Shown here piece by piece: positions 1 to 53,370 of a DNA stretch of 64,000 nucleotides. This stretch comes from Antedon mediterranea. Taxonomy: Eukaryota; Animalia; Echinodermata. The position numbers were made by a program, and so were the translations under genes. The stretch spans positions 10,726,001-10,790,000 of the forward strand of contig NC_092672.1 of assembly GCF_964355755.1 (NCBI RefSeq), in the 5' to 3' direction. The notes beneath the pieces were generated by a model. That model saw nothing but the letters and a program-made list of their open reading frames with translations. It did not search any database and was not told the DNA's origin. The first letter of the stretch is position 1, and each line of letters starts with the position of its first letter.

Positions 1-1027
1 AGTTTAATATAATTTACATATTGTTACTGTTCATTATATTTGCATAAATTTACATAATTTAAATATATCTTTCGAGGCCTCTTGTTGTTGAACTTTTTTA
101 GTAAGAGTAGTAGTGTAATGGCAAGCAGTTTGTCATCTTTGAAATGCATGGAATTCAAATTTGTTAATTATCATTTCATTTTTTATTTATGAATTATTAA
201 AAAAAAAATATATCCACATTCAATGGAAATACCAACATATTTTATGTCAATATACCCTCATAATTATCATACAGAATAAACTAGACTTCAATAAAGGTAA
301 AAAATGGCTATTGGCCAATTATTAAACATGATTTCTGGCTTAGAGGCCTATGAACCCAAGCTCACATAAAAATTTGACTTTATCCAAGTACTGTACTACA
401 CCTGCAATCAGAATAACAAACTGCTTGACATTAAAAGAATATACGTACGCGTTTGATTCATTCATATTGAGGGCAGCATATTACAAATTTATTTCATGCA
501 AAAAAAATAAAAAATTATGAAAATATCGGCTCATTATGAACAACAAAGCTAAAGAGTTGGAATTAAATTGGAAATTGTTAATATTTAACTGATTTCAGTT
601 AAAAAATCATTTACAAATGCATAATGAATAAATTACATACAGTTTTAGAATATCTATTGAATATCAGATATGAATATCATTTGTGACAACATTATCAAAA
701 TATAATTTCAGTACATTAATGCTGTTAATTATAAAGTTAAATTAATTTCAAATCCATATGCAGTTCCTATTTGCAATACACAACTGGACACAGCATGTAA
801 AAAGAACGCAAAAAAACAACAAAACTAAACTATAAATTAAACAAAATTGTTACTACCAATTAAAACAAATACAAGTTTGAAGACAGTATTTTTATTTTAT
901 GAAAACAAACGTTATCGAATTTTTGAATTTCATATTTTCCATTTTTATACCTCAAATGGCAAGAATTAAGGTTGTTGGAAATAGCATTGAACTTTGTATG
1001 AAGAAATTGGTGAATTAAAACCAAATT

Positions 1028-1224
1028 AAACTAGTTTTATATACTGTAAAAAAAGTAGTATAAACTAGTTTAGACTAGTTTTATATAAAGTGGTAAAAAC
1101 TAGTTTAAACTAGTTTTATGCACAGTAAACAAGCAGTAAACTAGTTTATATAAAACTAGTATACAGTACATACAACTAGTTTAAACTAGTTTATACTGCT
1201 TTTTTACAATATATAAAACTAGTT
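1028..1224. repeat. Palindromic element built from about 11 AAACTAGTTT (ACTAGT) units
   Basis: Outer ~50-bp arms are reverse complements; multiple internal ACTAGT palindromes. Confidence 0.7.
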
Positions 1225-2579
1225 GATTGTTAGTTATAATTAGTTTGACGATACTGTCAACAAACTATTCACAATACTATTACTATTACTACCAACTAGC
1301 AGACAACCATTTTGTTAAAATACAAAACTAATACTTAATGGATTATACCACTTTAATTTAAGGGAAGATATGAATTTCATTTGAGGTTAAATTTACCCAA
1401 AAAGACAATACATTCATTGCACATTTAACTACCAACCAACCCCAGTAGATATAAATAATCCTGTAACACTACCCTTTAGATGTCATTACTTAATGCCACT
1501 GCTTAATACAGGTATTTAAAAACAATTATATACTTCACAACAATTGTACCATTGTAAAAGGGGTGCTAGCACTTTTCTGCCGCTCCTCGAAACTTTGGCC
1601 CGACAGTACAGTTCATCATCATCATTTTATTAACATCCAATGACTTCCCTATATTTGAGTTAAACAGCAAAATGAAATAAAAAGTAAAAAAAAAAAATTA
1701 TATAAAAACAAAACAGAAAATGAATTTTTTTGCAGGAATGTATATAAAAAATTGGAACTAAAATTAAATTTACAATTAAGGGCAAGCCAAAAAGTAAACT
1801 AATCCTCCCTATCATTTGAACAGTCTCATAGCCAAAATCTATAATACAGTGTCAATATCTCTGCAACCCTAAACATGATACAAGCAACACATGTGATGCA
1901 GAAAATCTGGTGCAAATTATGCAGGCCAAAGAGAATTTCATTTAATTTTCCTGAATAGAGTAAGGGTTTGGCAAAATTCTATATCTCAAATTTATATCTA
2001 AAATTAATCATAAAAACCTAATATAATTAAAAGAATTGAGCCTACATAACCTAGCATGATTGTACACAAATAATTCTCTACTCGTGCAAATATTTAAATC
2101 TAACATGAACCCGATGAACCATGCAATACAAATGAAAAATAATTGAAACTGATATGAGAATAAGGAAGACACCAATTAACTATAAGAATCATGACATTAG
2201 AAATATTACAGTAGTTTTAGCTAATTTTATTTTAATTTATTATGGACATTATTATTATAACATGATTACTTTTATTATTATTTTAGATTTTAAATAATGT
2301 AATGGGGTGCCAGTTCTTGTAGGTCATGAACGAGGCCTATATATTTACACAAAAAAAGAATTCTGTATGACTGACTAAACTTAAGTAAGCTCAAGAAAAG
2401 TTCAGAATTAAATAGGGTAATTTATTGCGTTGTACAAAATTATATAAATAAATAAAATTCCAAATAAATAAATAAAAAAGTAAAATAAATAATATCTCTA
2501 TGATTGAACCAAAGAACACAGGCCAGGCTGTCTAAGTGCTTTCATGAATATTCATGACCTACAAATTTGGCACCCACTT

Positions 2580-2796
2580 AGGGCCTTCACACCTGCTACG
2601 GTTCCAAAGCCGCAAATAAAATCGCCTCTCGAGGATTCATTTCTACGATGTGCCACACCAGTTATGTGCCAATCTTTTTACTCAATAGGCACATGCATAG
2701 CCGCGAGCCGTGAAAATCCAACAGTCACAAATGCTGTACACGCAATCTGACACGAATATGAACTGGAGCTGGACCGGAGTAGGTGTGAAAGACCCT
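2580..2796. mobile_element. MITE (AGGG.C.TTCACACCT..TCCGGT/CCA TIR)
   Basis: Imperfect inverted ends; a related terminus GGATCTTTCACACCTG occurs at about 19060. Confidence 0.55.
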
Positions 2797-5471
2797 ATAC
2801 AGGTGCTTCTATAAAAATATGTTAATGACGGTTTAGAAATGAAACACATTTCTAAAATCAAAAATAATAACTAGTAAATAATAAGAAAGAAGAAAAACAT
2901 GATGCAATAAATATTTTAAAAAATGAAATTAAAACATAATGCTGTATAAAAAACAAATAATAAATCAGTTTTATGTGTTAATTGTGATTTTATAGTAAAT
3001 ACTGGGTTAAACAAATCAAAATTATCTTTGACCCTAACTGGTCAATTTGTGATAGACTCCATGCAGCAACGTGTATACCATCATGCAAAGCAAGCCATCA
3101 TGCAACATCGACCAAGCTTCCATAGCAACTTGCTTTACAAAGTTTTACTTAAATCATGACTTTGAATAATGCATTTTTGTAGGTCATAAAGTTGCTATAA
3201 AAACTTGGCTATTGATAATTAGCAAACCATTATATATAGTCTTGATTGGTCAAGCCAGTCTTCATTCTCAGTTGGAATAGGAGAACATAACTCGATAAAT
3301 ATAGGGTTGGATTATGAAAGTGGAAGAAATACTGTATCAAACACAGATATAAATATATTTTATTTAAATAATGTAAAGTTTTGCATAGCAATTTAGATAA
3401 TGTTCTTTTTAAACAATTGATTTTATATTTAATTTAATTTTCTAAAAATTGCTATGATTTCAATTATATGATTTCTGAACATTAATTTATTATAGTTATT
3501 TCTCAAAAATGAATAATTACCAAGAAAGTGTTCACAAAAGTATCCAAAAGTCACTCAGAGATAGAAGGGTCAATGAGGTCGTGGAACAAGCCAATGAAAC
3601 ATTGAAATCATGCATGGCCGAGAATTACATGGATTTACGTTGATTGTATTTACCGGTAAACATGTTTCTTTGAAATTTTTGGTAAACGTTGGTTGAAAGT
3701 TGCCGGGCTGGAGAAAAGTCAAAGACGAAATAAAAATATAAATTTGTTTGCCTTTACAAAAAAATACATAGCCAAGACTGATATTAAAAACACAACATTA
3801 GCATCATACTAGGTTTATATGGACAGATTTGTTTAAATAAATATTCTGATTTTAAAAATCTTAGAATCATTGCCAGGGGCCAAGATATTTTGAACAGGGG
3901 AGTAAATTAATAGTAGGTAAAAAATAGATACCTCATGCTTGATTGGTAACATTGGGAGATTTTGTTTTCGTGACGCGCCACCTAACAGGCAGTTGTCGAG
4001 TCATTCAACGCAAAAATATGAGTATGCGAAAAATTACCATTTACCCGACACTTACTTCATAATCGAGTGGAGAGTTTGTACAAACATAATCTCCTAAATG
4101 TTACATGAACTCGCATTCCAGTAGCAACTTACAGTCGGTAAGACACAAACAAAGTTTTTCTTTTTCAAAGAAATAATAAGGGCATATACGCAGGCTAAAA
4201 AAATGCACTTTACAAAAATTTAAGTAAAATAGGAAATGGGAAAAATGTTAAATGAAAAAGCTTGTAATGTAAGTAAAAGTTTTTAGTTGGGTCTTTGCAA
4301 TTGGTATGGGATTCCTCAATATTTGATCTGTCAAAGCAAAAGCTCTAGCTAGACATTCTAGAATCTGAAAATAACATGTTTTTCACTTTGTGCCTTCCAT
4401 ACTTATATGTGGCGCATTTAGAAACTGTGCATTTAGCACATGAAAAATAATGTTGCTACTGGAATATTGTGGTTTGAGAAAATAAAATTATAAGCAGTGC
4501 CTTATATTCTGTACAAACCATATGAAATGAACAGTACAGGTCATTCTATATTGATAAAAATGTAATCAATATAAAATTTAAAAAAAAAACATTTTAAAAA
4601 GTCATTGGACATTCTAAAGCGAACTTTTAATATTAGGTTACTGTTTGATTTTATAACTATTAATTTTAATATTTTTGAGGTGGCTATTATAATTCTAATC
4701 AAATTTATAAAATATTTGCTTTATGTTTTTCTGGATTCTCAAAACAATAATTGGAAATAAGTTAATATTTGTGTTACTTTTTCTTGTTTTTTATCCTTTA
4801 AATTTAAATTGTATGAATTTCAAATAAAATGAAACATTTGAGAGAAAAAATAATAAATTTTGTCTACTGCTAATTCACAGAAATAATATGTTCTATCTAT
4901 TTCAAATATTATTATCACTGTCAATGGGTTTGTGTCTATATTGTTGCCTTTTAAACACATTTTTAGAAAATGTGTAAATCTATAACAAAAAAGTTGGTAG
5001 TATAGTAGTAGTAGTATTAACATTACAAGATATCAAAACATTCTAAAAATTGAAAAATTTCAGTTATATAACAAAATATAAAAAAAATGTACAAATGTAT
5101 ACATCTTATTATTCATATCAAAACTTACATCCAACTTAATTCTTAAGTTATTAAATTCCAGATAAAGAAACGTCTTAAAAATACAAAATATTGCATTGAA
5201 TGGTAACGTATTATTTACAACCTAAAGTAATTAATTACATAATAATGTACTGTTTACAATATAAATATATAGATCAATTATATACCAAAGATTCCAAGAA
5301 GCAAGCAAAGCAAGTGTTTGAAAAGACACTTTGGAATTCAATATTTGCGAAAAAAATTAAAAAAGCATTACGAATTTCAAAAGCTCAAAAAAGCTAGCCC
5401 TCATGAATCATTGAATAATTACAACGCCCTCTATAGTATAAACATAGAGGGCGTTTAAAGGAGCATTTGAA

Positions 5472-5933
5472 TCAAACGGATGATTGGAAGACAATGCAAC
5501 TTTCAGAACGTTCCAAAACATTACCAGTTGTCGTAGCACCATCGTTATCAGAAGACAGATCATCCAAATGCGATATAGCACCAAGAGAGAATGCTCGCTG
5601 CGGCTGGTACGCCACAACTTCCATGACATCATGCAATCTATGTGCTACATCTACATTTGCGATTGCCCTCTGGGCACGATAACTACCATGGTTGTTTGAT
5701 CGAAATTTACCCGGCGGAGAACCGGTAAGAAACGTCTTTAGTGGCAAGTCCTCCTCCTCATCGTCTTCATCATTGTTATTATTACAAGCATCGGTTCGTG
5801 GTCGACCGGTCACCGGCATCATGCGATCATTGTCGTCCCACCAGAAGTCGGGACTGGACGTGGAAGATAATGAGGATAGATGCGCCAGACGGGAACAGCA
5901 GAGAAAAGTGCAACAACAAGAGGTTACTGGTAG
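5472..5933 (-). CDS. Putative stop-codon readthrough extension of Kv-beta, 153 codons (LPVTSCCCTFLCCSR...ESCIVFQSSV*)
   Basis: In frame directly after TGA-CTA. Includes ORF-track entry 5472..5822 plus 37 upstream open codons. Coding-like base composition persists to the second stop and then drops to AT-rich UTR. Confidence 0.7.
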   Translation of the reverse strand, partial: LPVTSCCCTFLCCSRLAHLSSLSSTSSPDFWWDDNDRMMPVTGRPRTDACNNNNDEDDEEEDLPLKTFLTGSPPGKFRSNNHGSYRAQRAIANVDVAHRLHDVMEVVAYQPQRAFSLGAISHLDDLSSDNDGATTTGNVLERSESCIVFQSSV

Positions 5934-6107
5934 TCATAACATTGTACCTGAATTATGCGCCTCACGTCCGTGAGACGATAGAGATTGCATGTCAGTTGGG
6001 ATACCACTCGGTTGCCGTGACATCCCTGTCCGACCATCTTTCATCGGTTTGTTTCCAAGAATTTTGTCAATCTCTAACATCATGTTTGGTGTTAATTTCT
6101 TGATAAC
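5934..6107 (-). CDS. KCNAB: Kv-beta last coding exon up to the first stop: [57 protein letters not shown]
   Basis: caag acceptor at 6108; [10 protein letters not shown] matches the Kv-beta C-terminus; TGA at 5936-5934. Confidence 0.93.
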   Translation of the reverse strand, partial: VIKKLTPNMMLEIDKILGNKPMKDGRTGMSRQPSGIPTDMQSLSSHGREAHNSGTML

Positions 6108-9100
6108 CTTGGGTTAAGAAAAACAACCAATTGTTAGAATCCTTTCTCAGGAATAATTGAGCCAAGTAGTGCCGAATAATTGCCTATGCCTATTTTTGGA
6201 CCAATATTCACCTATAGGAATAGTTCCTTTATGAATTTAGGTTAGGCCATTTTCTTGTAAACCATAAACTATTGAAAGTTATTTAGCCTAGGAAGGACAA
6301 CTTCTAATTACCATTAGAACGGAATAGTTATGAACCAATTGAGATGAAATAAAGCAGTTAAGGAAAGAATGAACATAATCATTTGGAACATTCCCAACAT
6401 GTCTCCAAGGATTAGAAAATTAATCAGTATTCTATCAGTAATCCCACTGACAGGGGTTATTTTGTGAACAATTTCAACGAAGCAATTCCCCGTACTCGTC
6501 TTGAATGGTTTATAGTCCTTATCTGAAAAGACTTCACCACCAGAACTAGGAGCGAGTCAGCGTCAAACCCATGCCTTAGTTATAGTAAATGGCGGCCCTG
6601 TCTTAATTTGACTTGCTGAATAATAAACAAAATCAAAAAACATAAATATAATTCAAAACTAAACATTTAAATAAGTAGGCTAAAAGCATCCACTAAACCT
6701 GCTCTGTAGTACTTGCTGATTTCCGTTATTTTTTCTTAACCGAGATTAATTAACAAAGTCAAGTACCGTATCGTTATGCCACGTAGTACACAGCCACGAG
6801 CCAATTACGAATGATAATCAGGTTACAGTACAAGGTGTTAAGTTTCAAAATTGAGATGCAAATTGATTCCAGGAAATTTCAGAAGAAATTTGAGAACTAA
6901 GTTTTTCCCTCAAGGTAGTGAAGAAGGATATTAAACGTTATTCCCTCAAGGTAGTGGAGAAGTTTAATAACCATTTGCCTTAGTTATCTTACTTCTTTGT
7001 TCTATGTTCTTTTTCTTTTTTTTATATCAATTCTGTTTACAGTCATCAAATAATTCACCACAGCTGAAATAATTTAATCTATGCTTTCCTGTTTATTGAT
7101 GTCCCTAATTTGGGTTCCTATTGTTCCTTATTATTTTTGCTGGTAGACACTGTGTATCAAGAATGTGTATATCTTAACATAGATTCTAAGTACTGTATAT
7201 TCCTTTGTTCATATACTAATTGATATGCTAATTTAGTGTCCAAGCTTATGTATGTGGGTTGCATTTAATTGGTTTTAGTATTACAGTTTATTTTTAATTT
7301 GGTTTTATCGAACTTCCGTTTTATCTGAGTATTATCTGTTTTAATCTAGTCTATCTTTATTTTTATACTCATATTTTTTTATATTGTATGTTTAATTGTT
7401 TTAAGGATGCACCATTATTATGTGTGCCGCTGTTCAAAAAGCGTTTTCCAAATAAATTATTATTATTATACAAATCCTAAACTATAGGTAAACATGCATA
7501 GTTCTATAAATGTAAAACTTATTCAAAGCCAGATTTCAACTAGGTGAATTTATATTTTCATCTACTTTTTGTGACGTGATGTGCAACAAGTTAGAACTTA
7601 GAAATGTTTAATTTCCACGAGTATAATTGTCTTGTGGAAAACAGAATATAAACATTTATTATTTGTTCTATGATACACCTACTTTTATTTAATTTCTTCA
7701 TCATAAATCATTGACGAATGCTAGGCTAGAAAGAAAAAAAAGGTAGTGCTTCAACTTTAGACGCGGAGTAGAACAGCTATATATGGCACGCACAACAAAT
7801 TGTTTTCCAACGCGATAAGTCAACGACGTCACAAAAATGTTCAAACATTTTCACAGAAAGCTGAAAGTGCATTTAAACATTAAAAATTATCATTATAAGA
7901 TATATAGTGGGGTTCCTAATAGCTAAAAAAAAAAGGGACGATACTTCAAATTTGTTTAGAAGCATGACATTTGGTATGGCAAATTGTATAAAAAATGTTC
8001 AACTAACTGTGGAGCCCCACTAATAATTTTTTCATTAGGTAGAGCTACTAATTTCAAATGACACGCAGCGCATTATCAAATGGCAAGAATACAATCAGGT
8101 GTGTTATAATACAAATTACATCATAGCTAAAATTAAAATAAACTACAAAAAAAAAAAAAAAAAAAATATCCTAGGGTCTAAACATGTACATTTTCTTGTG
8201 AAAATTAATTTTTTTTTTTTTCAAAGGTTAAAATTTGATGGTCCAAAAGTTGATTTCTGACAATTATCATAGCATCAACATGATTGAACCGTCTGTGGTG
8301 GTTGTTGCTGAAACATACTGCACCTGCCTGCACACAATAACGATTTGGCTGATACATTTTTTATTAGGGCTACCCACCCATTCCTCTGTCTTATCAAGTA
8401 ATGTCTAATGCACAGATCGGGTTATATGCAATTATAGTACACTTTTAAAATTTAATTTATGTTTGTTTTAATAATTACATACACCAATATGGTACACCAC
8501 CTGTCTCCCTATATTTATACATAGTTAATAATAGCAGTGATCTCAAATATCACATCAAAAAGCCACAATTAGCTTTAAGTAAATAAAATGTCATTAATAT
8601 TGATTGCTATCAGATAATGTTATCATAATAGAATTTCTTACTCGTAAAGCCTGGATATTTTCATAGAGTTGATTAGCGTTGGAAGCCCCTAGGATGACTG
8701 AGTTTACTTGTTCATTCTTGAGTAACCACGCTTAAGAAAAAAGAAAGATGATTAGTTTAAAATTTAAATGTCGATAATGATTATGAAACTGTTGAAACAA
8801 AGAGCAGTGTATAGGCAATCAAATAAAAAAAAAATACACATTACAAAAACATGAAGTTTGTAGTGGAGTTGTAGCTTAGTGGTTAACATGCTTGCCTTCC
8901 AATAAGGTTTTTAGATAAGGTCCAACAATCGGCTTAAAACAGATAAGATAAAACATACCAATTGCAAGCTGTGGTAAAGTGCATCCTATACGATTTGCAA
9001 TGATGGCAATCTCTCTCAGTTTACTTTGCTGTCGTCGACCCTCATCACTTAAAATTCGTTCTTTTAACCATCCATACCCCTATTCAAAAAATTGTATTAA

Positions 9101-30100: not shown

Positions 30101-33100
30101 TAAGCCTTTGCTGTAAGTAAAATCGATTATCGTACACACAAGCTTGAGGCTAGAATGCTACTAATTCAGAACAATTTAACATTTCTCTGAAAGTGTTTAC
30201 TGTATATAAATAATATTACTATAATTTTATTTTTATTACTATTGCTGTACGCTGCCAGCACTCCAAATGGTCATTAATAGTTTCCATATAGCCATTCATT
30301 TTTGGAAGCATTATCTTTAAACCAAAACATGAAAAATGAATCATACTTTGAATAGGAAATTTGTAGTAAATAGTAAGGTTATTCAAATTTGAGGCAAAAA
30401 TGGTAAAAAAGTTATTAATCAAAACTGGGTTTGTTGTGGAGGAACTGTAGATTCATGGGCAATGGTGGAGCATTAACATCATTGTACCGTTTAGTCGTGC
30501 GCCCCCACCTGGAATATTGTTCAGTCATTTTTAATTCAATTTCTTGTACACAATCTCAGCATATTTCTAATTTTCAGATCAAATTTATTAGATTCCTTAC
30601 TCGCACTTGTCCTAATTATAATGTTTCTCTTATTTCTCTTGAAAATCGTAGAGTTGTTTTTGATATGGTATTTTTATACAACTTTTTCAATTCTGTTTAT
30701 GATTATCCTCTTGCTTTGTTTAAGTTGAATATACCAACTCGTACTGGCAGCAAGTGTTTGCTTCACATTACTTGTGGTCGTGTTGAATGCACAAAACGAG
30801 GTATTTTTCAGCGGTTACCTAACACAAATAGGTTGCTTGTTACTTGTTTGGATATTGATTTATTTTATGATAGTTTAAATGTATTTAAGGGTAAAATTTT
30901 TTAATCTCTTTAATGTTCCGATCTCTGTTTATGTTATTGTTGCTTATTTGAATGTATTATTATAGTTTATTATGTTTAGATTCAACCTGTCAACTGAATA
31001 AAAAATATTAAAAAAAACATTAAAAACAATCAAGACAAAATAAAAAGTTATTTGACTTCCTGGAAATGGACTCCCAGTTGAGAATCCTTTTTCCATTTTT
31101 TCCTGATACTATTTTTCGCACAAAGTGAAAATTATTATGTCACATTACATTTTGTTCAGATAGACAATATAGTGTACTGTAACTTTAAAGCATGGGTTTT
31201 AGTTCCTTGGGTTAATAATAATAATAATAGTGATAAAGTGAAAATTATCAACCAACAACCACTGTCCTAATCTATAAAACTACAAGTGTACAATTTAATC
31301 TATTTTAAATAATGACATACACATTATTGAACTTACACTGCAGTATACAGGGATGTCACCAGCTTTTTGGGGTGCCGGTCGGCAAATTTCTCGGGGGGGG
31401 GGGGGGGGGGGGTTTGTCGTTATTTCAGCGAAACATAAAGAATTATGAAAATAAATAACAACAAATTGCGTCAGGTCTAGGCCTAACCTTGTACCACCGG
31501 GGAGTCGCCGTTATTATTCGCGAAAACAAAAAAACCCTCACGAAATGAATAGCAATAGATCGCGTCAGGCTTAGGCCTAGCCTTGTAGACACTACGACCA
31601 CTAGGCCTAGTCAAGGCTTATAGATAGATGCCCCAAAACCTGAATTCCACAAAAACGGGCGCTTCTTTATTTAGGCCTAATCCCTAATCAAATAATGTAG
31701 ATAAATTATTAGCCTAGACCTTACTACTTGTTGCTCGATATAATGTTCGTGTTCTTTTGCGCGAGAGTTTTTTAGCGTATTCGCGAATTCCGGATTTTTT
31801 GTTTCACAACTGTGCGGCAAGCATGTAGTGCATGGCCGGCAAGAACAGAGACACGTGTTTATGGGTTAACTGAAGTTCAGCAACCTGAAGTTATCCCAGG
31901 GACGTGTAATTATTGTACCATGCTCGGCGATCATAAACGAACGAACTTGCCCGGTCTCACTGAACCATGCGCATGTTTTTTTATTTTTTTTAATAGTTCG
32001 TAGAGTACAAAAATGTAAAACTAGTAACATAATATAATTAAAGCAGGGTGACAAAACATTCAGCAATTAAAAATGATTTTGTTTGGGTCTATGTAGTTAT
32101 ACATTTTTAATTACTGCGTACTTGTTTGTATTTTTAATCTGTGCAAAATAAAACGCTTGAATGGTCGCTATGTGAACTTTAAACTTGTACACTATGTGCT
32201 GTGTAGCACGTTGTTCGCCATGACTCACAAGCTGTAACAATGAATACCAGGGCAGGGTAGGCCTGGTAAAGTAACGTACGTAACCACGGAAACATTTGCT
32301 GTAGTCTTTTGTCTTATCTATATGAGGCTAGCTTGTCTGTTATTAACGATGTGCTAGGTAAAATGTTTTAGTACGAATTTTAGTTAGGCCTAGGCCTAAT
32401 ATAAATATCGAAATGATTAATAAATAATAGTGGTGGTCGGCAGCCTGTAAATCCTGGTCGGAAATGTTGAGTGCTGGTCGGGGTCGACCAGCGCCGACCA
32501 GCGTGGTGACATCCCTGAGTATAGTCTTAACATTAATATAATCATAAATAAAAAATATAATAAATAACAAACTTAATGTACTGTATACACATACTTAAAA
32601 TCATCACACGCATCATACATAGGCCCAATAAATATATGACAATTAAGTTTTAAATTTTAAAATTCATCAGTATTATTTTTATTAATTATTTAGACATTTT
32701 TGTTTTTACAAAAAGCTTGACAATTTACTGTGGTTGCTATATATCGGTTTTTAGATAGCAAACTATAAAAGCTCTGAAAAAAAGTCTGAAACTTTCAAAA
32801 TAAAATGCAAAGCTTATTGATTGATTCAAGTACAGGTTCACATTAGGACAAGTGAAACACACACTGGGTAATGAATGGCATAGTGACGATAACTCACCAA
32901 GAAATCAATTCTACAACCACTATAAGCAGTTTCAACGCATTTACTAAAGTAGATATGGAAAGTGTTATCAATAAATGTCATGTGATCAATTCGTTTCGGA
33001 AATACTAAATTTATCATGTAAACCTAAAAATGTGTACTAAAATGAAATTCATCAAGTATCAAGTAATCTCTTTAAAATTTATAATTTAAATATTTACTGT

Positions 33101-36100: not shown

Positions 36101-39100
36101 CCAAAGGTAATCTCAAATAAAGACTGTATACTGACATAATTAGTTTATACACATAAATAAGTAATCTATCTCCAGATATTATACTTTATGACTTAAGTAG
36201 TTCAACAGTTTCAATGATTTTAATTATTATTTTTAATTAAGTGAGCATACTGTATGTATAACTATAATACCATTATTGTTTATTCAGTTTTTTTCATTTT
36301 TTTATCAATAATACTCAATAACGTTTTATTCACGTAGTTTGTACAATCTCTATGTATAATTATTAAAACATGATTTAATTAATTAAAATTGTTACATTTT
36401 ATTTTGTGTTATTGTAAAAAAAATGTAAATGTATAGCTTCATGATACAGATACTGTATAACAAATACAGTATAGCATTCTTCTTGCATTCTCTTTCAAAT
36501 ATGTTGTCCCTCTATATTGTAGGGCACCACTACTGTAAAACCTTTTTGCTGTTCCATTTCTATTCAGCTTTTACAATGTTTACTTATATTTATTTTTCAC
36601 GAGGGCATGAAATGGAATAAAATAAATATCAATAATTATGTATATACTTAATTTATTATAATTGTAAAAATGAAACATAATACATACTGTATTGAAAAAA
36701 AGCATAGAAATGAACAAAAACAACAATTTTGGTTGCAAAGAAATGAAATTACGTATTTTTACAATGTTACAATTTGTATCTGTATATGTACAGTGATAGT
36801 ACTGAAAAAATGGAAAAGAGATGAGTAACTCTCAAAAGACAAAAAAATATCAATAATTCACTGCATATCACTATACATTTACTGTGAGGTCTATAATAAA
36901 AAACCTATTGTTGTTTACATTATTTATCAATGTTAAAAATAGGTTTGAACTAGTGAAAGTACTGTAGTATTAAAAAAAGGTTTTAATTAAAATGTAATCA
37001 CTTTAATAGAAGGAGACTACGTAGATTGATCGGAGCTCACAACAATCGATAAATGGAGAATTTAAAACCCACGGTTCACTGACCCTGACGCCACACTGCA
37101 TGAATCGCATGATAATCAATCAGGTTTGATTATAGTGTAAGTGAACTATGAAAACTAATAATAATGTATTCATTTATATAACGCCAATTACAAATACATT
37201 TAAATGATGCTTTCACTTTATTAACACGGTTATTTTGATCAAACACGTATGGAAACATACTTTATTAATATTATGTTGCCGTCAGTAATCAGCACAGTTT
37301 GTGCTTTGACCTGGGTGGAGAGAGGCAAATGCAAATAAAATGTCTTTCCTAAGGATAAAAGCAATACGACGAGCATTGTGCTCAAAAGCCTAATCACGAG
37401 ATCAGAACTAAATAATGAACAATGGGTGAATTGTTTAATATCTAGATAGAGTCTCAGTATTTTGATTTCTTAAATTGTTCTGTACTGTGCGGTTTAGTAA
37501 AACACACAGACCTGTAAAACCATGGTCAGTTAATTTTTCAAAGAAATGTAAATATATGTTTAAATTGTTGATGGCCACAATAAACAAAAGGTTTACTGGC
37601 CCGGTGGCCCATTTAAAAGACTCATGGATAGTCCCTGATTGGTGTTTAAAAAATGGTTTATTAATGCATAGAGTGCTTTATTCCATGATGAATGTCATAA
37701 ATTTACACCTAAAATAAATATAAAATATTTTTTTCTGAACTATGATATTTAAAATGTATTACCTATATTGCATATCCATGGTGTTCTAGTAAAGTTCCTC
37801 TTCACAGCATCTGGTGAAGGAAGCCTACACCATCATTAACTGATCATGCTTTCTTTGCTGCAAAATAAAAATAAATAAATAAAATACACAAGTGCCGAAT
37901 TCATGAATTATCTCTCTAAAATGACAATATTACAGTCTGTATGGATTGATACATTATCAATGTTACTGTTTTAGATGCGATACCACACATGTGGCCTGAG
38001 ATTATAATGCATAAAACCATTGATTTTAATGCCCAGATGGTTATTTTATGTACAATAAAAAAGAAAATGCAAAAATGTATAGTATTTTTTTCTGTATAGT
38101 TTTGTTGTTTGGAATAGGGAATTTTTGACAGATTTGAATGGGATTCCTCGTACAAGAAATTAAAATTGGACTATAAATAAATAAGAAAGCTACAGTAATT
38201 ATGATAAATAAAACATGTGCTGTATACTAAGAAATGCCACATTAAGGGGAAAAAAGGATAAACACTATAAATGAAAAATGCTCATAATGACCATTCAAAC
38301 CAGCATACATTTATTTTATCTTAATCCAGTTGTTCGATTAGTTTCTTCAACAATACACACTAATCGAATCATGTAGATAAATAACCAAATGGTTTTAAAT
38401 AAAGAAAAAAAACTAGAGAAACCGGAACGAAGATGTATCCCTTGGGTGCCGTAACAACACGGAACTGTCATTCGCTCTCAACTAACAACCCGTTATAAAA
38501 AGCTTTGAAAGATATGTGTTAACATTTTTATATTTATTGTCGGTAAACTTAAGGAATTGCTTGATGAAGCACCATGCTAAACGGTAGGCCGATTTCAACA
38601 GTGTCTTTTGCGGCTCATCGTAAAACAAGTGCTAAAATGAGATCCAATCGTTACGATGGAGTTTATTTGGCTAGAAATTATAACTAATCAATTAGATTGC
38701 ATTATTTGACATCAGTGATAGTTTGTTGCGTATCATTGTTACTTGACCAGGTGAAAGGTGTGAATTAAGTTATGGATATTAATCAATACACCTAATCAAT
38801 TATTATAATTAGATGTTGTTATTTGTTTAATTAGCTATATCAAATTAAGCTACTGGTATTGGATAAACCTTTCATAGGCTTGCAAGCATTAGAATAATAT
38901 TGTGTTGTTGTTTTGTGCTTCAAAGCAGATGCAATTTTATCTTAACAAGACATTTGACTTAAAAATGTAAGTGTAAGAAACAAACAGTAAGCAACAGAAT
39001 CTTCCAAAGTATATCACAATTAAAATAAAATCAGGTTGATACCTTAAAAAGTAACCAACAAAAATTAACCATGATTTCTGGTAAGATTCCATTATTATCT

Positions 39101-45100: not shown

Positions 45101-48100
45101 TGATTCTGTGTTATAGTGTGCGTGACAGTTGTGGGCCACCGTATGTACCTTATTTCCAGCAGTATTTGACACTCACTATGGTACTAAGACAATACTAAAT
45201 TTTGGTCATTCCTACCACTAAAAACACTACGATATGACAGGACTCCCAGCACTGAGATGACTTGTATTCATTGATTGCACATAAAGAAAAGGTATTAAAC
45301 ATTAAATTAAGATATTTTAGCCTATGAATGTCAATAGTACTTTTTTATGTCGTGCTCCAACAGTAACTTGATGTATAATTCTATTTTAGGATTTTTGGAC
45401 ACTGTAGAAATCTACATTTTACGAAAATGTCTTTGATGTTGGAAATAAAAGAACATGCCAAAGCTTCTAATATTACTGTACGCTCAATAACATGCTTTTT
45501 TGTATGACATAAAACATAGATATCATGTTCGAATTACCGGTGAATATATATATACAAAATAAGCCTGCAGGTAGTGATACAGTATGCATGAATTAATTAA
45601 TTTCTTGTTGGCAGTTAGTGGTGTGCATTGCACGATTGAGCACTGTACATATTTATATATGTTATTTTGTTGACACAGGCATTTCAACATCTAGGCTCAT
45701 AAAGTACTGTATACTGTAATGTGTCAAATTGCAGTGTGTTTTAAACATTTTTTTTCACACAGTTATGCAAGAAAATGCAATTATAAAGTGTTGGAAAAAA
45801 AGTGAGGTGGTTTACATTTTTACCAGTACTGCATTTCAAAATGCAAAAATAATTACTATTTTGAAAATTCTTTACAGTAAGGCTGTTATGTGATTTTTAC
45901 AAAACTTTGGTGAACCTGTATTAGTAAGAAATGAAGAATAATTTAAAAATCTTTGAAATTAAAAAATATTGAAATATGACTAAATAATAGAAATGCCACA
46001 CAATCACATGGCATCACATGGCATCACATGGCATCGCATGGCATCACATGGCATCACATGGCATCACATGGCATCACATGGCATCACATGGATAAACACA
46101 TTTGAGTTAAGTTAAGCTTTAATAATCACTGTCCAATAGGTGGTATTGTCCCTGATACAGGTAATATTTATTTGAATAAATGCCCAGCAGTATTTATTGT
46201 TCAGGAGGGTTTTTATGGGGGCAGGGAGGCATTTATTAATAATTGTATCAAAATGCTTGGTAAGTGATAGATCAATCAATGAATTCTACTACATAGAAAT
46301 GTGTACTGTATGCATAATAATAGCGGGGTGTTTATTGGAGGAAATGAAATGAATACCTTGGGCGTTTATTTCAAATGATGTTCTATGAGTACGAGGGAGG
46401 GTGGTTATTTAAAGCGGGAAGTTTATTCGAATAAATATGGTAGTGTATCTTTTAATAACTGTAATGGAAAACAGAAATCTGAAAATTTTGTTTATTGAGT
46501 AAATGTAATTAACAATCTGCTGAGGTTTGTTTATTATGTCAAATATAAATATCATAATTTTTTAATAACATCATTATGATTGCTATCCCTATGTAGTGAT
46601 TATTATTATTTGTTCTGCTATTTTAGATTGTAATGTACATTCAATGCAATTTACAATAAATAGCTGTGTACTGTAAGTTCAAAGAAATTGTATATTAAGT
46701 TAGTTACAGTTAACAAGATTATACAATTACAGGAGACAATACTTCAATTAGATTTGAACTCATCACTAGGATGATCATTCCAGCAAATACAACAATTTAT
46801 AGTGCTACAGTATTTTGTTTACACTAAGTCCAGGGAATAATTTCGCCAAAAAGCTATACAAAACAACCTTTTTGCTACAGATTTTTAAAATTGTGTAGCA
46901 AAAGGTACAATACAAAACTATGTTTCTTGACTCAAAAATCAGTTTGATTAGCAATAAACAAAATTTAAAAATTAAATTTTCCCCTGATGTCATACAGTAT
47001 TTTAGCATAGGACTGGTAACAGGTATGGTCTTATCAAAAGCATTCTGTCAAACATTGTGTAAATCCTTTAGTCTAGTGTGCAGTCTCAACAAGCACAGCC
47101 TCATCAAGCATGGTTTCATCAGCCATACAATATTCTTAAATACGGGTAGGGCCTTCTGCCCAAAAATCCTTTGCTATTTATAATAATAATATCAAATAAT
47201 AAATATTATACCCTTTGAGAAAAAGAGTTTAAAAATTGCAGAAAACTCATACTTAAACTATTAACCCATAAGAACTATTAGTATATTATGCATGACTAGT
47301 CATCAATAAACTAATGGATTGGAATACATTTACCTTTTGACTATTTCAGGACTAATATATGGAGAACAATTTATTTAATACTATGTACGGTATGATTTCT
47401 TAAAATAGTATGGCAATAATACATTATCGCATTAAATTATAATGAATAATAAAGTTGTGCATGTCATTATGTAGACAGGTTTGAAGGATAATCAGTAAGC
47501 ATGGATATATGTAGCATGTAATGCTATTTTGTACAGTACTGTACAGTGTAACAAGCATGGAAATGTGGCATGTAATGCTATTTTGTACAGTACTGTACAG
47601 TGTAACAAGCATGGAAATGTGGCATGTAATGCTATTTTGTACAGTACTGTACAGTGTAACAAGCATAAATGTGGCATGTAATGCTATTTTGTACAGTTAT
47701 TGTACAGTGTAACAAGCATGTATTTGTGGCATGTAATGCTATTTTGTACTGTACAGTATAACAAGCATGTATTTGTGGCATGTAATGCTATTTGGTACAG
47801 TACTGTACAGTATAACAAGCATGTATTTGTGGCATGTAATGCTATTTGGTACAGTACTGTACAGTGTAACAAGCATGTATTTGTGGCATGTAATGCTATT
47901 TTGTACTGTACAGTATAACAAGCATGTATTTGTGGCATGTAATGCTATTTGGTACAGTACTGTACAGTATAACAAGCATGTACTTGTGGCATGTAATGCT
48001 ATTTTGTACAGTTATTGTACAGTATAACAAGCATGTACTTGTGGCATGTAATGCTATTTGGTACAGTACTGTACAGTATAACAAGCATGTACTTGTGGCA

Positions 48101-49388
48101 TGTAATGCTATTTGGTACAGTACTGTACAGTGTAACAAGCATGTACTGTAATTGTGGTATGTAATGCTATTTTGTACTGTAAAGTGTAACAAACATGCAC
48201 ATTGTGGCATGTAATGCTCTTCTGTACAGTACAGTATTAAGCATAGTAAGCAAGTAATGCTACTCTCTATAGTAGTGTAGCAAGAGTGCAATTGTGTCAT
48301 GTAATGCATTTATGTACAGTACAGTGTAGCAAAAATCCACTTATGTACAGGACAGTGTAGCAAGCATAGACATGTGGCATGTAATGCTCTTCTGTACTGT
48401 ACAGTATTAAACATAGACATGTGGCATGTAATGCTACTCTCTATAGTACAGTGTAGCAAGCATGCACTTGTGTGACATGTAATGCATTTATGTACAGTAG
48501 TGTAGCAAACATGCACTTGTGGCATGTAATGCTACTTTATACTGTACAATACAGTGTAGCAAGCATACACCATTTGTTAATTACGCATTCACCTTTTAAA
48601 AATATAATAATCAAAATCAATACAATTTGTACTCATATCATACCCTTTCCACACCTGCACATCTACACACTTATGGCATTTAATGCTACTTTATACTGTA
48701 CAGTGTAGCAAGCATACACCATTTGTTAATTAGGTATCCACCTTTTACAAATATAATAATCAAAATACAATCTGTACTCATATTATACCCTTTGATGTAA
48801 TATTTCAACCCAACACCTCCTTCACATAAATTACTAACACTTTTTACATAGAAAATACATTGCTTAACATGTACAGTAAAAATGTTTTTAAAAACACAGC
48901 AGGGAATGCATTAGTAGGCCTACTGTACTATTGGCTTTATTCAAAAAATAAGTCTGTTATTTGCTATTCTAAATATTTTAATACATATAAAATTAATTTT
49001 TTAATTATGCGAACACAACAATTTAATAGTATACTATAATAAATTACAGTATACAGTTTTTTGGGAAAGGTGCACTTTTATTAAACATTTATTTAATCAA
49101 CATGAACTAATCAATGTGTAAAACACTTTAATATTATCGCAAAGCAATTTTTAATGAGCATTCATTTTTTCCTTCTTATTAAATAATCCTTCAATTTGAA
49201 TAGTATTCCACTTACCTGTAGAAGTTATTATCCAGTGCGATTAAGCCTACACGCGGAGATAAATATCTCTGCGTGTATTTATGTGAACGTGAGGAGCCGA
49301 ACGCAGGTAGACAAGAAATTCTGTGATGTGCCAGCTTCGTCAATCTCAATCCATGTCCTCTTTGCTGCGAAGAGTACATACAACACAT
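5934..49388 (-). CDS. KCNAB: Voltage-gated potassium channel subunit beta (Kv-beta; KCNAB/Hyperkinetic family, AKR6), whole multi-exon gene. About 413 aa with the 49.3 kb first exon, or 361 aa with the 37.8 kb start
   Basis: Hand-spliced exons, all GT-AG and phase-consistent: [49216-49388 or 37763-37779], 35039-35082, 22683-22720, 20294-20373, 17814-17903, 17170-17300, 13806-14012, 13456-13550, 8959-9079, 8642-8730, 5934-6107. Translation [25 protein letters not shown]...FDTAEVY...TTKIFWGG...ANRPD...YWGSSRW...[14 protein letters not shown]...[10 protein letters not shown] matches the Kv-beta core. The AKR catalytic D/Y/K/N residues are present. Confidence 0.97.
8642..8730 (-). CDS. KCNAB: Kv-beta exon (A)[29 protein letters not shown]
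   Basis: 89 nt, taag/GTAAGA. Confidence 0.96.
8959..9079 (-). CDS. KCNAB: Kv-beta exon [40 protein letters not shown]
   Basis: 121 nt, atag/GTATGT. Confidence 0.96.
10660..11015 (+). mobile_element. SINE with tRNA-like B box and a Meta/MESC-like central domain
   Basis: GGTTCAAGTC box, then GGATAAGGACTTAAAACTGGAGGTCC..GTGCACTTTGAAGAACCC; TTTACA-type tail. Second copy inverted at about 18560-18830. Confidence 0.6.
11697..12050 (-). mobile_element. RTE-like LINE 3' remnant
   Basis: Minus strand encodes [11 protein letters not shown] (RLxWxGH motif); ends in a (GA)n tail. Confidence 0.55.
13456..13550 (-). CDS. KCNAB: Kv-beta exon (G)[31 protein letters not shown]
   Basis: 95 nt, tgcag/GTAAAT; WSPL cofactor-binding motif. 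Confidence 0.96.
13806..14012 (-). CDS. KCNAB: Kv-beta exon [23 protein letters not shown]...[10 protein letters not shown](G)
   Basis: 207 nt inside ORF 13624..14073; atag acceptor, weak GTTTTT donor. Confidence 0.95.
14111..14328. mobile_element. MITE family A, about 220 bp (TIR CAATCTAACAACAGGA..GAGCTC)
   Basis: Terminal inverted repeats; other copies at 16580-16801 (opposite orientation) and 35170-35295 (partial). Confidence 0.75.
15738..16225. mobile_element. Cluster of palindromic MITE family B (AAGCTCTGTCTACACTATCAAAC-type TIR): one full copy plus a tandemly duplicated copy
   Basis: Core CAAACTAGTTTGACAAAAAAAGTGTGATGTGCCCAAATATGGT..CATCATGTCCAT..GGGCACATCAC occurs three times here and again at 63520-63655. 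Confidence 0.75.
16580..16801. mobile_element. MITE family A, inverted copy
   Basis: Reverse-complement match along its length to 14111-14328. Confidence 0.75.
17170..17300 (-). CDS. KCNAB: Kv-beta exon [43 protein letters not shown]
   Basis: 131 nt, aacag/GTAAAC; has the Kv-beta-specific Asn of ANRPD. Confidence 0.96.
17814..17903 (-). CDS. KCNAB: Kv-beta exon [29 protein letters not shown](K)
   Basis: 90 nt, tacag/GTAAGT; contains the catalytic Lys (TTK). Confidence 0.96.
18560..18830 (-). mobile_element. Second, inverted copy of the SINE at 10660-11015
   Basis: Reverse complement reads GTCTTCTCGGATAATGATTATAAACCGTAGGTCCAGTGTACA..GTGTGGACTTTAAAGAACCTAGTACATCTTTCG, matching 10745-10830. 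Confidence 0.6.
20294..20373 (-). CDS. KCNAB: Kv-beta exon [26 protein letters not shown](K)
   Basis: 80 nt, tgcag/GTATG; contains the catalytic DxxxxY. Confidence 0.96.
22420..22560 (+). mobile_element. CR1-type LINE extreme 3' remnant
   Basis: Degenerate [17 protein letters not shown] motif with a frameshift. Confidence 0.5.
22683..22720 (-). CDS. KCNAB: Kv-beta exon (G)[12 protein letters not shown]
   Basis: 38 nt, poly-T cag acceptor, GTAATA donor; NADPH-binding GTW motif. Confidence 0.95.
22795..22930 (+). repeat. Dispersed repeat fragment, second copy at 46845-46980
   Basis: AAAAGCTATACAAAAC.ACCTT.TTGCTACA.ATT.TAAAATTGTGTAGCAAAA..GACTCAAAAATC is shared by both loci. Confidence 0.7.
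28262..28580. mobile_element. Non-autonomous element with short asymmetric inverted repeat and a long terminal hairpin
   Basis: TTATATAACA..TGTTATATAA pair (28265 / 28403), followed by a ~160-nt imperfect palindrome centred on CTCGGCTTTGCCTCG. Related split copy at 61045-62150. Confidence 0.7.
28628..29220. repeat. Tandem repeat, about 190-bp unit, three copies plus a partial
   Basis: ACCGTAGAACAAGATTTTCAGATAGGTA recurs at about 28628, 28817, 29007 and 29190. Confidence 0.92.
30430..31020 (+). mobile_element. CR1-like LINE 3' fragment
   Basis: [31 protein letters not shown] motifs typical of the CR1 ORF2 C-terminus; AATAAA and A-rich tail near 31000. Confidence 0.8.
31348..32517. mobile_element. 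Non-autonomous hAT-like DNA transposon (CAGGG termini)
   Basis: 14-bp perfect TIR CAGGGATGTCACCA / TGGTGACATCCCTG; AGTATA directly repeated on both flanks. Confidence 0.8.
35039..35082 (-). CDS. KCNAB: Kv-beta first common exon (R)[14 protein letters not shown](G)
   Basis: 44-nt exon, ttctacag acceptor and GTAAGT donor; canonical Kv-beta motif. Confidence 0.95.
35722..35917. mobile_element. Small MITE with AAGGC.AACTC termini (Harbinger-like)
   Basis: TTAAGGCAAACTC ... GAGTTGGCCTTTA, with internal GACGA/TCGTC motifs. Confidence 0.5.
37763..37857 (-). CDS. KCNAB: Kv-beta alternative exon: 5'UTR plus short start MDMQY(R), coding part 37763-37779
   Basis: Acceptor ttttgcag at 37858. ACCATGG Kozak context with an in-frame TAG just upstream. 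ATG GAT ATG CAA TAT AG|GTAAT joins in phase to give MDMQYRNLG. Confidence 0.75.
39820..39940 (-). mobile_element. tRNA-derived SINE fragment (related piece at 10350-10440, + strand)
   Basis: Box-like GGTTCGAATCC, then CTCTCATTGCCTCATCCTTCGGATGGGACGTAAAGCCA on the minus strand, shared with 10365-10402. Confidence 0.5.
41830..43041 (-). mobile_element. Non-autonomous Helitron, copy 1 (1.2 kb)
   Basis: Minus strand reads A|TCTATATATAAATTTACG...CTAGATGGTACGCGAGCAAAGCGAGCGTACCATCTAG|T: 5' TC, 3' hairpin plus CTAG, inserted between A and T with no TSD. Ends shared with 57516-59890. Confidence 0.88.
44427..45143. mobile_element. MITE with long TIRs, TACGG termini and 6-bp TSD (IS3EU-like non-autonomous element)
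   Basis: TIR TACGGTGGCCCACAACTGTCACGCACACTATAACACAGAATCACACAATTAAAGAAG... at both ends. TGTACC directly repeated at 44421-44426 and 45144-45149. About six internal 39-bp tandem units at 44700-44960. Confidence 0.85.
46004..46091. repeat. 10-bp minisatellite (ATCACATGGC)n, about 9 copies
   Basis: Read directly. Confidence 0.95.
46160..46442. mobile_element. MITE family C, diverged copy
   Basis: Shares TIRs and the internal AATTGTATCAAAATGCTTGGTAA with 55939-56361. Confidence 0.65.
47495..48560. repeat. Minisatellite, 52-57-bp unit TGTGGCATGTAATGCTATTTTGTACAGTACTGTACAGTGTAACAAGCATGTATT, about 19 copies, degenerating rightwards
   Basis: Read directly; it explains the repetitive ORFs at 47424-48708. 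A further ~165-bp duplication follows at 48520-48792. Confidence 0.95.
49216..49388 (-). CDS. KCNAB: Kv-beta alternative first coding exon, long N-terminus [57 protein letters not shown](R)
   Basis: ATG at 49388 with an in-frame TAA two codons upstream. 57 codons plus AG, then a consensus donor AG|GTAAGT. Phase 2 joins exon 35082 to give FY-R-NLG, like vertebrate QFYRNLG. Confidence 0.8.
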
Positions 49389-51662: not shown

Positions 51663-52504
51663 TGGGATGGTGACCGGCAGAAGATAGTTTATTACGTTAG
51701 CCTTTTATTACAAATTTATTTTCACTCTTTCAAACAACAAACGTCACTATATATATGTAATTAAAGAATAAGTTAATTTATTTCATTTTGTTTATTATTG
51801 TTTACCACTGTTACATTTTAACATTTTTAAATGCAGAATAAATTTGCAGTATTTATATGCCCGGTAAACCAAAATTAACCAACTAAAGACAGAGCTTGGC
51901 GAACTTGGTGGCCCCCTAGCACCCCATGGTTGCTCGGTTTGCTTACAAAGTACTCCAATATTATGAAATTGGTCCCAATTATATAACTCTGCACCCACCG
52001 AAAAAAAATACTGCATACGGCCCTGGTAGTACAACGAGGCTAGTGATAAAATTAATAATTTTAACTTACCGCGTAATGCTAAAATAAGGATCTTAAGTGT
52101 TTCCTTCTTTGCATACCTAAGTCTTGCTTATTCTATGCTATAAGTAGTAAAAAAAAGGATTTGTTAATGTCTAGTATTATCACTCTAATATCTTAATCTC
52201 AGTTATCTCACAATGCATGTAAAAATCACTTTCCATTAGAGAACTGGTGTCAACACACAACTGTAAAACATAGGCCCTAACCTTTTTAAAAAAATTGTAA
52301 AAACATAAATCTGGAAATCAAACCAACAACCATACAATCCCTGACCACATACAGTTAAATGCCAACAAACCAAACGAGTCTTAAAGCCACTTTCCCTAAT
52401 CTGATCTAATTTAAGGTCACAAACTACATTTTATGTCAATTTAAATACTATATTTTTTTGTCTTTAAATGGTCAAAATGTGAAATATAAGTTGATTCTAA
52501 TAAT

Positions 52505-53370
52505 TAAAAAGAATGGCCAGAGGACTGAAAAAAGGCAGTTTTTCTTCACTACCTATTAAAAAAGGAAACACTAGAGAATGTGCAAACAATTGTACAGTCT
52601 CACATGCAAGCAAGATCATGCTCCATATCATCGCAGCAAGATTAAGAAATAAACATGAAAATGAACTACCACCCGAACAATCTGGTTTTAGAAAAGGAAG
52701 AAATCAGATTGGAACTTTGAAGAACTTGATGGAGAAGAAAATAGAGTTCCAACAGCCTGTATTTCTATGTTTCATTGATTACAGTACTGTGTACAACCAT
52801 GGAGTAATCTTTACTCCATGTACAACATCCAAAATTATGGAAGATCATAGAGGAAATGGGTTTTTTCTACACATATGATTACCCTGGTCAGTCAGATCAG
52901 TGACCTGAGAGTGACAATAGTGTTTACAATAGGGAAAGGAGTTCACCAAGGATGTATCCTCTAACCATATCTATTCAATATTTATACAGAATACAGCATG
53001 CGGAATGCGCCCACCAATTTTAGATGCTTATGACATACTCTCCTTGCAAGATCCAGGATCTGATAGAAATAGTGAAGAACTTCAGTGAAGAATATGGTGT
53101 GACTGTTCCTCAATGTTAAAAAAAAACAAAAGTGATGGTGTGTACGCGAAAAGAAATGACCAACAAGTTCAAGCCGACGGTGAGGATATAGAGGTTGTCG
53201 ATCACTTCAACTTCCTAGGCTCAATGGTTTTGTGGGGAGAGGCTCTGTAAATGTGTTGAAACAAAACGACGTCTTGCTTTAGACAAGATCATCAGCCTTA
53301 ATACAAATATCTGAAAGGAACGAGGAATTTCTAGGAATACAAAAATTACAAAAAATTATGATTTCCCTGG
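52505..53370 (+). mobile_element. Degenerate RTE-clade LINE reverse-transcriptase fragment
   Basis: KKGNTRECAN..SHASKIML..LPPEQSGFRKGR..LCFIDYS and downstream GVHQGCIL..YLFNIY motifs, with frameshifts and stops. Confidence 0.85.

Follow-up and report, generated by a model that had tools for sequence, protein, structure and literature searches.

Does the Kv-beta gene of the feather star Antedon mediterranea make only proteins that end at the annotated stop codon, or do ribosomes partly pass this stop and add a long tail to the protein? The question arises in a 64,000-nucleotide stretch of A. mediterranea DNA (the window), where the last Kv-beta codon is followed by TGA-CTA and then by a long open frame, and where an earlier note had proposed programmed readthrough. 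We consider partial readthrough of this UGA-CUA stop, giving rise to a minor isoform, the best explanation, with a probability of roughly 0.6.

The Kv-beta gene and its annotated end

All 361 residues of the RefSeq protein XP_071944185.1 (P0121, A. mediterranea) map exactly to 11 exons on the minus strand of the window, from 37779 to 5937. These are exon 1 of the 361-aa isoform with its start codon (37763-37779), exon 2 (35082-35039), exon 3 (22720-22683), exon 4 (20373-20294), exon 5 (17903-17814), exon 6 (17300-17170), exon 7 (14012-13806), exon 8 (13550-13456), exon 9 (9079-8959), exon 10 (8730-8642) and the coding part of the last exon (5937-6107). The spliced coding sequence has 1083 nt, all 10 introns are GT-AG and the translation is identical to P0121. 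Residues 4-327 match solved Kv-beta2 structures (E 2.5e-165; 324 residues aligned), the aldo-keto reductase barrel is full-length in this structure-database match, and FDTAEVY and TTK, which we take to be the motifs of the catalytic Asp, Tyr and Lys, are identical to Kv-beta2 in the alignment. An internal exon is 100% identical to A. mediterranea proteins named Kv-beta2-like and, in the same test, 80% identical to the Kv-beta of Saccoglossus. The gene is a crinoid Kv-beta (KCNAB / AKR6), and from this identity its product would be expected to bind Kv1 channels as a tetramer.

There are two RefSeq isoforms, of 361 and 324 aa; both end at the first TGA, neither has a low-quality label, and we found no longer spliced RefSeq form. 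The last exon encodes the end of the aldo-keto reductase fold followed by a tail that ends in T-M-L, and the annotated stop lies 36 residues past the end-of-fold motif. When we fetched 124 proteins, 108 had this motif and 101 of the 108 stop 8 residues after it; hemichordate Kv-beta tails extend 60-71 residues past the fold as compared to 8 in vertebrates. Because the 36-residue crinoid tail is inside the range seen in relatives (8 to 71), the first stop looks like a normal end rather than a truncation of a conserved domain.

The annotated tail is basic and Ser-rich and contains S-G-I-P (~6008-5997, minus strand), which is not evident in the hemichordate tails and which presumably fits the SxIP pattern for EB1 binding. 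The hemichordate proteins P0003, P0122 and P0123 have Gly-rich tails that end in G-T-S-S-H, and the crinoid tail has S-S-H 11 residues upstream of its stop; this likeness may come from a shifted stop or from chance. Mammalian Kv-beta2 has been reported to interact with EB1 (PMC9317154).

The 5' end of the gene may also vary. A candidate alternative first exon at 49388-49216 (minus strand) has 57 codons, is basic, has a consensus phase-2 donor (CAG/GTAAGT) and ends in NFY, resembling the MQY of exon 1; with it, Kv-beta would have 413 aa, a form found in neither of the two RefSeq proteins. Another such candidate is at 59526-59348. Of the two readthrough isoform sizes given in the earlier note, 515 aa (361 + 154) agrees with the annotated exons and 567 aa requires the candidate first exon at 49388-49216.

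Elsewhere in the window, two exons of HPS3 (Hermansky-Pudlak syndrome 3) are present at 60018-60887 and 62784-63089 on the plus strand (Pfam HPS3_N, E 5e-23 and 1e-12), opposite in strand to Kv-beta and upstream of it. Open frames at 51688-50816 (minus strand), 30419-30901 and 52504-52875 (both plus strand) look by eye like remnants of non-LTR retrotransposon reverse transcriptases, and a tandem repeat at 47430-48530 is seen as repeated translations in several frames. A let-7 Rfam match at 1100-1189 is false (37 bits against a cut-off of 53.5) and lies in an array of AT-rich palindromic units (1030-1200).

The first stop and the open frame beyond it

The spliced frame ends GGT ACA ATG TTA TGA CTA CCA GTA, just as first read, and the P0121 mapping places the TGA at 5936-5934 on the minus strand. 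The frame then continues, also as described, through 153 sense codons (5933-5475) to a second TGA at 5474-5472, which is followed by T. The leaky context had been named as UGA-CUA(G); UGA-CUA is present (5936-5931), but the next base is C, so that the context is UGA-CUA-C and not UGA-CUAG, matching six of the seven bases of the leaky motif and including UGA-C. CTA is a rare triplet here, at ~1% (5 of 457 locally and 19 of 1470 downstream). UGA-CUA by itself led to 1.5% readthrough in mammalian reporters and required no 3' structure (PMC4132726), and readthrough was highest with G at +7, with 1.0-2.3% for UGA-CUA-G contexts and 0.6% for UGA-CUA-T (PMC4359377). AQP4, OPRL1, OPRK1, MAPK10, MDH1 and LDHB share UGA-CUA with the crinoid gene and need no 3' structure (PMC4132726), CACNA2D4 has UGA-CUA-T, and several of the vertebrate UGA-CUA genes encode neuronal membrane or signalling proteins. 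They differ from crinoid Kv-beta in having G at +7 in the UGA-CUAG genes, where the crinoid has C, and in the length of the extensions, which is ~28 residues in AQP4 and 13 in MAPK10 (PMC4132726) as compared to 153 codons. Since a conserved coding extension was present in just 4 of 23 human UGA-CUAG genes (PMC4132726), a leaky context is by itself insufficient.

We found no stem-loop after the first stop that was more stable than shuffled sequences in any of 4 windows (z 0.60 to –0.75); folding against shuffles gave no stable hairpin of the dfr/Hk type ~9 nt past the TGA, and the long-range RNA pairings predicted near this stop vary with the length of the segment that is folded. The first poly(A)-type hexamer downstream is at 4670 with none before it, so the extension is probably inside the mRNA. 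A hairpin is present past the second stop: at 5455-5423 (minus strand), beginning 17 nt after the TGA, 12 perfect pairs and 2 more form a structure of –20.9 kcal/mol that none of 200 shuffles equals in stability (z –5.57). This hairpin was first spotted as an inverted self-match; it might act as an element of the 3' UTR or stimulate readthrough of the second stop, past which the frame runs for 25 codons to a TAG.

To ask how often such a frame stays open by chance, we shuffled the 459 nt and found it open in 53 of 100,000 dinucleotide shuffles and 70 of 200,000 mononucleotide shuffles; the other two frames of the same 459 nt contain 6 and 16 stops. The chance is thus ~5e-4 per gene, and a few genes per genome could show the same. 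The window has six stop-free frames of at least 150 codons, and one of these, a 173-codon frame at 44278-43760 (minus strand) with many stops on the opposite strand, has no evident gene.

The composition of the extension is coding-like. Its GC content is 0.475, near the 0.427 of the last exon's coding part, whereas the 459 nt that follow have 0.246; of 637 overlapping 459-nt windows from introns and downstream sequence, none is as high. The best single GC step is at 5392 (5362-5449 within 2 log units), 25-110 nt past the second stop; log-likelihoods are –756.4 for the best step, –759.1 for a step at 5472 and –787.5 for the first stop, which is therefore ~31 log units worse. Thus coding-like GC does cross the first stop and drop later, as the earlier note had stated, with the best-fitting step at 5392, shortly past the second stop. 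GC by codon position is 0.54/0.48/0.41 in the extension, an order that the Kv-beta coding sequence shares.

We also scored the extension with a 3-periodic codon model (orders 0, 1 and 2) that was trained on 695 codons of Kv-beta and the neighbouring HPS3. The score is positive in frame 0 alone and strongly negative in the other two sense frames at all three orders; at order 1, frame 0 scores +12.0 and the others –19.8 and –31.3, and antisense and downstream frames are negative. Among 2000 stop-free simulated sequences, 27, 3 and 55 reach the observed score at orders 0, 1 and 2, respectively. The cumulative score drops until about codon 32, rises to about codon 142 and declines past the second stop. 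In a run of Asn, Asp and Glu (codons 51-62), all 12 codons have A as their second base and vary in the third. The distal ~120 codons of the extension show in-frame periodicity. In contrast, scores for the first 27 codons are –3.4 at order 0 and –3.8 at order 1; 0 and 1 of 24 left-out coding windows are as low, as are 18 and 17 of 160 stop-free non-coding windows. The onset of the signal, at about codons 32-42, is near a possible splice acceptor (5853) and an ATG (5822). The model is small, was trained on two globular proteins and marks down codons beginning with T, and thereby Cys- and Ser-rich stretches; the low score of the first 27 codons holds all the same, as modest evidence against readthrough. 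The first 80 nt past the stop have an exon-like GC content of 0.487, a value reached by 14 of 378 intron windows. The readthrough catalogue in PMC5100048 dropped candidates with such a late-onset signal if the onset coincided with a convincing splice site or an ATG that is conserved.

The protein that the extension would encode is hydrophilic, with a mean hydropathy of –0.48; 54% of its residues are disorder-promoting, and it has no membrane span. It begins with a Cys cluster (five Cys in eight residues, codons 6-13) and contains a Ser-rich stretch, the Asn/Asp/Glu run and three R-x-x-S/T sites before ending in S-S-V. We take the Cys cluster to fit a palmitoylation pattern, the R-x-x-S/T sites to fit a kinase-site pattern and S-S-V to fit the class I PDZ-ligand pattern, which the T-M-L of the short form presumably fits as well; an end of this type is expected by chance at ~3% from the composition of the tail. 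A single-sequence fold of the last exon plus extension, with W at the stop, has a mean pLDDT of 44 and is little informative, since it is poor even over a known helix.

Searches with the extension gave no Pfam family, no usable Atlas match (recognition 1395), no homolog among 17 candidate proteins of 84-268 aa, none at E<=0.1 among 1364 candidates of 371-2000 residues, which is a weak negative, and no confirmed hit among 566 pattern matches in metagenome contigs. The sole match among 1.84 billion representatives, P0124, is spurious: it consists of tandem repeats that each match the extension at 27% identity and 27.7 bits, and its E-value sums ten such weak matches. Among 229 matches to Kv-beta in metagenome DNA, 118 are relatives, and these were set aside as too distant for an animal Kv-beta, the best 80 having 35-52% identity.

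Alternatives to readthrough

A former long tail could have been lost to a nonsense change, private to this lineage or to this allele, with the extension left as an untranslated relic, which would account equally well for the continuity of the frame, its GC content and its periodicity. The TGA is one change away from several sense codons, and tail length does vary within the family (60-71 residues in hemichordates as compared to 8 in vertebrates). Against such a relic, CTA directly after the stop would be a coincidence of ~1%, the T-M-L at which the short form ends would itself fit a PDZ-type end, and the search of proteins of 371-2000 residues described above, a weak negative, turned up no tail-bearing protein; we consider a relic unlikely. 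A chance open frame in a GC-rich beginning of the 3' UTR, with at most a basal, unselected leak, is considerably less likely still. At 5e-4 per gene several genes per genome are expected to have such a frame, the window does hold one unexplained 173-codon frame and the extension has no homologs, but chance does not explain a periodicity that exceeds what stop avoidance produces, the codon-position pattern, the leaky context or a GC step that lies near the second stop and not near the first.

The late onset of the coding signal bears on two other possibilities. Alternative splicing could remove the stop, with the distal 126 codons entered through an acceptor whose first exon base is 5853 (5853-5875, minus strand, phase 2); here there is a pyrimidine tract with CAG, and the coding signal is absent upstream and present downstream. 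In a splice-site model built from the gene's own 10 introns, each of the 18 AG sites in the extension has a negative score, that of 5853 being –3.2; however, the real last-exon acceptor scores just –1.7 when left out, so the model separates poorly and 5853 may be a functional site. A phase-2 donor would be required, and no such site in the last exon scores above 0.8 (5941: –0.5), where real donors reach 3.2-10.3; the one good donor, at 5948 (5.0), does not join acceptor 5853 in frame. The earlier note had dismissed splicing because the only plausible intron shifts the frame, which is true for the best pair, 5948 with 5853, although in-frame GT-AG pairs do exist at weak sites. Among the 15 best in-frame pairs, the two with the highest scores leave out the last exon entirely and would thereby cost the protein the end of its fold. 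The would-be intron end, the 80 nt after the stop, also has a GC content (0.487) above that of 10 of the 10 real intron ends (0.17-0.36), and we found no duplicate last exon within the 64-kb window and no such RefSeq isoform. We therefore judge splicing into the distal frame to be quite unlikely. A 94-nt intron at 5947-5854 (minus strand; donor 5.0, acceptor –3.2) is possible in its own right; it would remove the first stop, shift the frame and yield a short alternative end of ~11 residues.

The periodic signal also climbs from about the ATG at 5822, where two in-frame ATG codons (5822-5817, minus strand; codons 38-39) could start a separate 116-aa frame used by reinitiation or from a second transcript, and the second ATG has an A at –3. 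If so, the shared frame with Kv-beta, the 37 open codons upstream and the TGA-CTA would all be coincidental, and the search among proteins of 84-268 residues gave no stand-alone counterpart; such a downstream gene product is very improbable. Least credible is that the TGA is an assembly error or a selenocysteine codon. An assembly error is unlikely, as the RefSeq models, which lie on a 39-Mb contig, stop here and carry no low-quality label. UGA is indeed the codon for selenocysteine, but none of the 4 Rfam matches obtained for positions 1-6200 at E 5 or below is a SECIS element, and a SECIS helix is found in 0 of 9 pattern hits in the 5.9 kb downstream that are inside the window.

Readthrough of the UGA-CUA stop, which we prefer, is thus favoured by the periodicity, by the lack of a SECIS match among these hits, by the lack of a good in-frame splice in the last exon and by a precedent in orthologs, and is weakened by the non-coding score of the first 27 codons. 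The extension would lie unspliced in the mRNA, and ribosomes would pass UGA-CUA part of the time and continue in frame for 153 codons. The near-cognate tRNAs for UGA are those for Trp, Cys or Arg, and one of them would probably be used at the stop. Because the base at +7 is C, a rate at the low end is expected unless a tissue factor raises it, and the rate would probably be low unless it is raised in neurons; several fly genes show more readthrough in neurons (PMC13278127). The product would have ~515 residues with a C-terminal tail predicted to be disordered. This tail would leave the enzyme core unaltered and add a Cys cluster of the palmitoylated kind, phosphorylation-type sites and an S-S-V end. 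Since Kv-beta functions in channel trafficking and clustering (PMC9317154), the tail may, as its motifs suggest, alter the anchoring or clustering of Kv1 channel complexes. At 1% readthrough, ~4% of four-subunit complexes would have one long tail.

Readthrough in insect Kv-beta and its meaning for the crinoid gene

The earlier note knew of no Kv-beta that is extended by readthrough; however, the Kv-beta genes of Drosophila and Anopheles are already catalogued as such. Hyperkinetic (Hk, FBgn0263220) is the Drosophila Kv-beta ortholog (PMC9317154, PMC12043502). The catalogue lists Hk-RD with 49 codons after TGA-C and Anopheles gambiae AGAP010067 with 45 codons after TGA-C and an RNA structure, classed together as an 'Ancient', stop-orthologous pair (PMC5100048 Supplemental Data S1). 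The FlyBase isoforms Hk-PL and Hk-PM have an extension of 47 aa and, by a second readthrough, another of 291 aa (PMC4528330 supplement), Hk is listed in tier 1 in a 2026 preprint (PMC13278127 supplement), and the Hk stem-loop gave a reporter a 4-5 fold boost relative to the dfr element (PMC13170385).

Hk and AGAP010067 resemble crinoid Kv-beta in that the gene is the same and the stop is TGA-C. In contrast, the fly context is TGA-CAA and the crinoid context TGA-CTA, and the first extensions are 49 codons in the fly and 45 in the mosquito, with a second of 291 aa in the fly, as compared to a single extension of 153 codons in the crinoid. Hk has a stimulating stem-loop and the crinoid gene has none after the first stop. 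The stop is 12 residues past the fold in fly Hk and 36 in the crinoid, these two tails do not align by eye, and 21 residues of the Hk extension compared by eye have no evident likeness to the crinoid extension. The Hk case is based on conservation across multiple genomes and on ribosome data, whereas the crinoid case is based on one sequence. We regard crinoid Kv-beta as a candidate for readthrough in the same gene as in the fly, which would work in a like way but may or may not go back to the same event.

An argument from the abundance of readthrough in insects, on which the earlier note had drawn, does not carry over to this gene. Abundant readthrough has been reported only in Pancrustacea and is rare elsewhere; the host here is an echinoderm, outside that clade, so insect abundance does not raise the prior. 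At the level of titles and abstracts, we found in the literature no report of readthrough in vertebrate KCNAB, no readthrough gene in an echinoderm nuclear genome (few subscription papers being covered), nothing on echinoderm Kv-beta among papers on invertebrate UGA-CUA readthrough and no paper that treats Hyperkinetic readthrough as its subject.

That readthrough of Kv-beta is bilaterian-wide, either inherited from an ancestor that flies and echinoderms share or re-evolved in the same gene, is a doubtful but consequential idea. If it is true, a tailed Kv-beta isoform would be a long-standing and unstudied part of Kv1 control that vertebrates have lost or that has been missed in them, and the crinoid gene might, like fly Hk, be read through twice, by virtue of the hairpin past its second stop. 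Should the extension not be retained in relatives, it would be one more unverified long 3' frame. Readthrough of Kv-beta is itself known; what is new is an echinoderm candidate in the gene that is read through in fly and mosquito, outside the readthrough-rich clade and with a longer tail. Current research on sleep and redox sensing gives Hyperkinetic a central place. Because we found no paper devoted to its readthrough, a tailed isoform in a second phylum would be a reason to study this tail. The crinoid candidate bears on whether single readthrough events are far older than their expansion in insects or arise repeatedly in the same neuronal genes.
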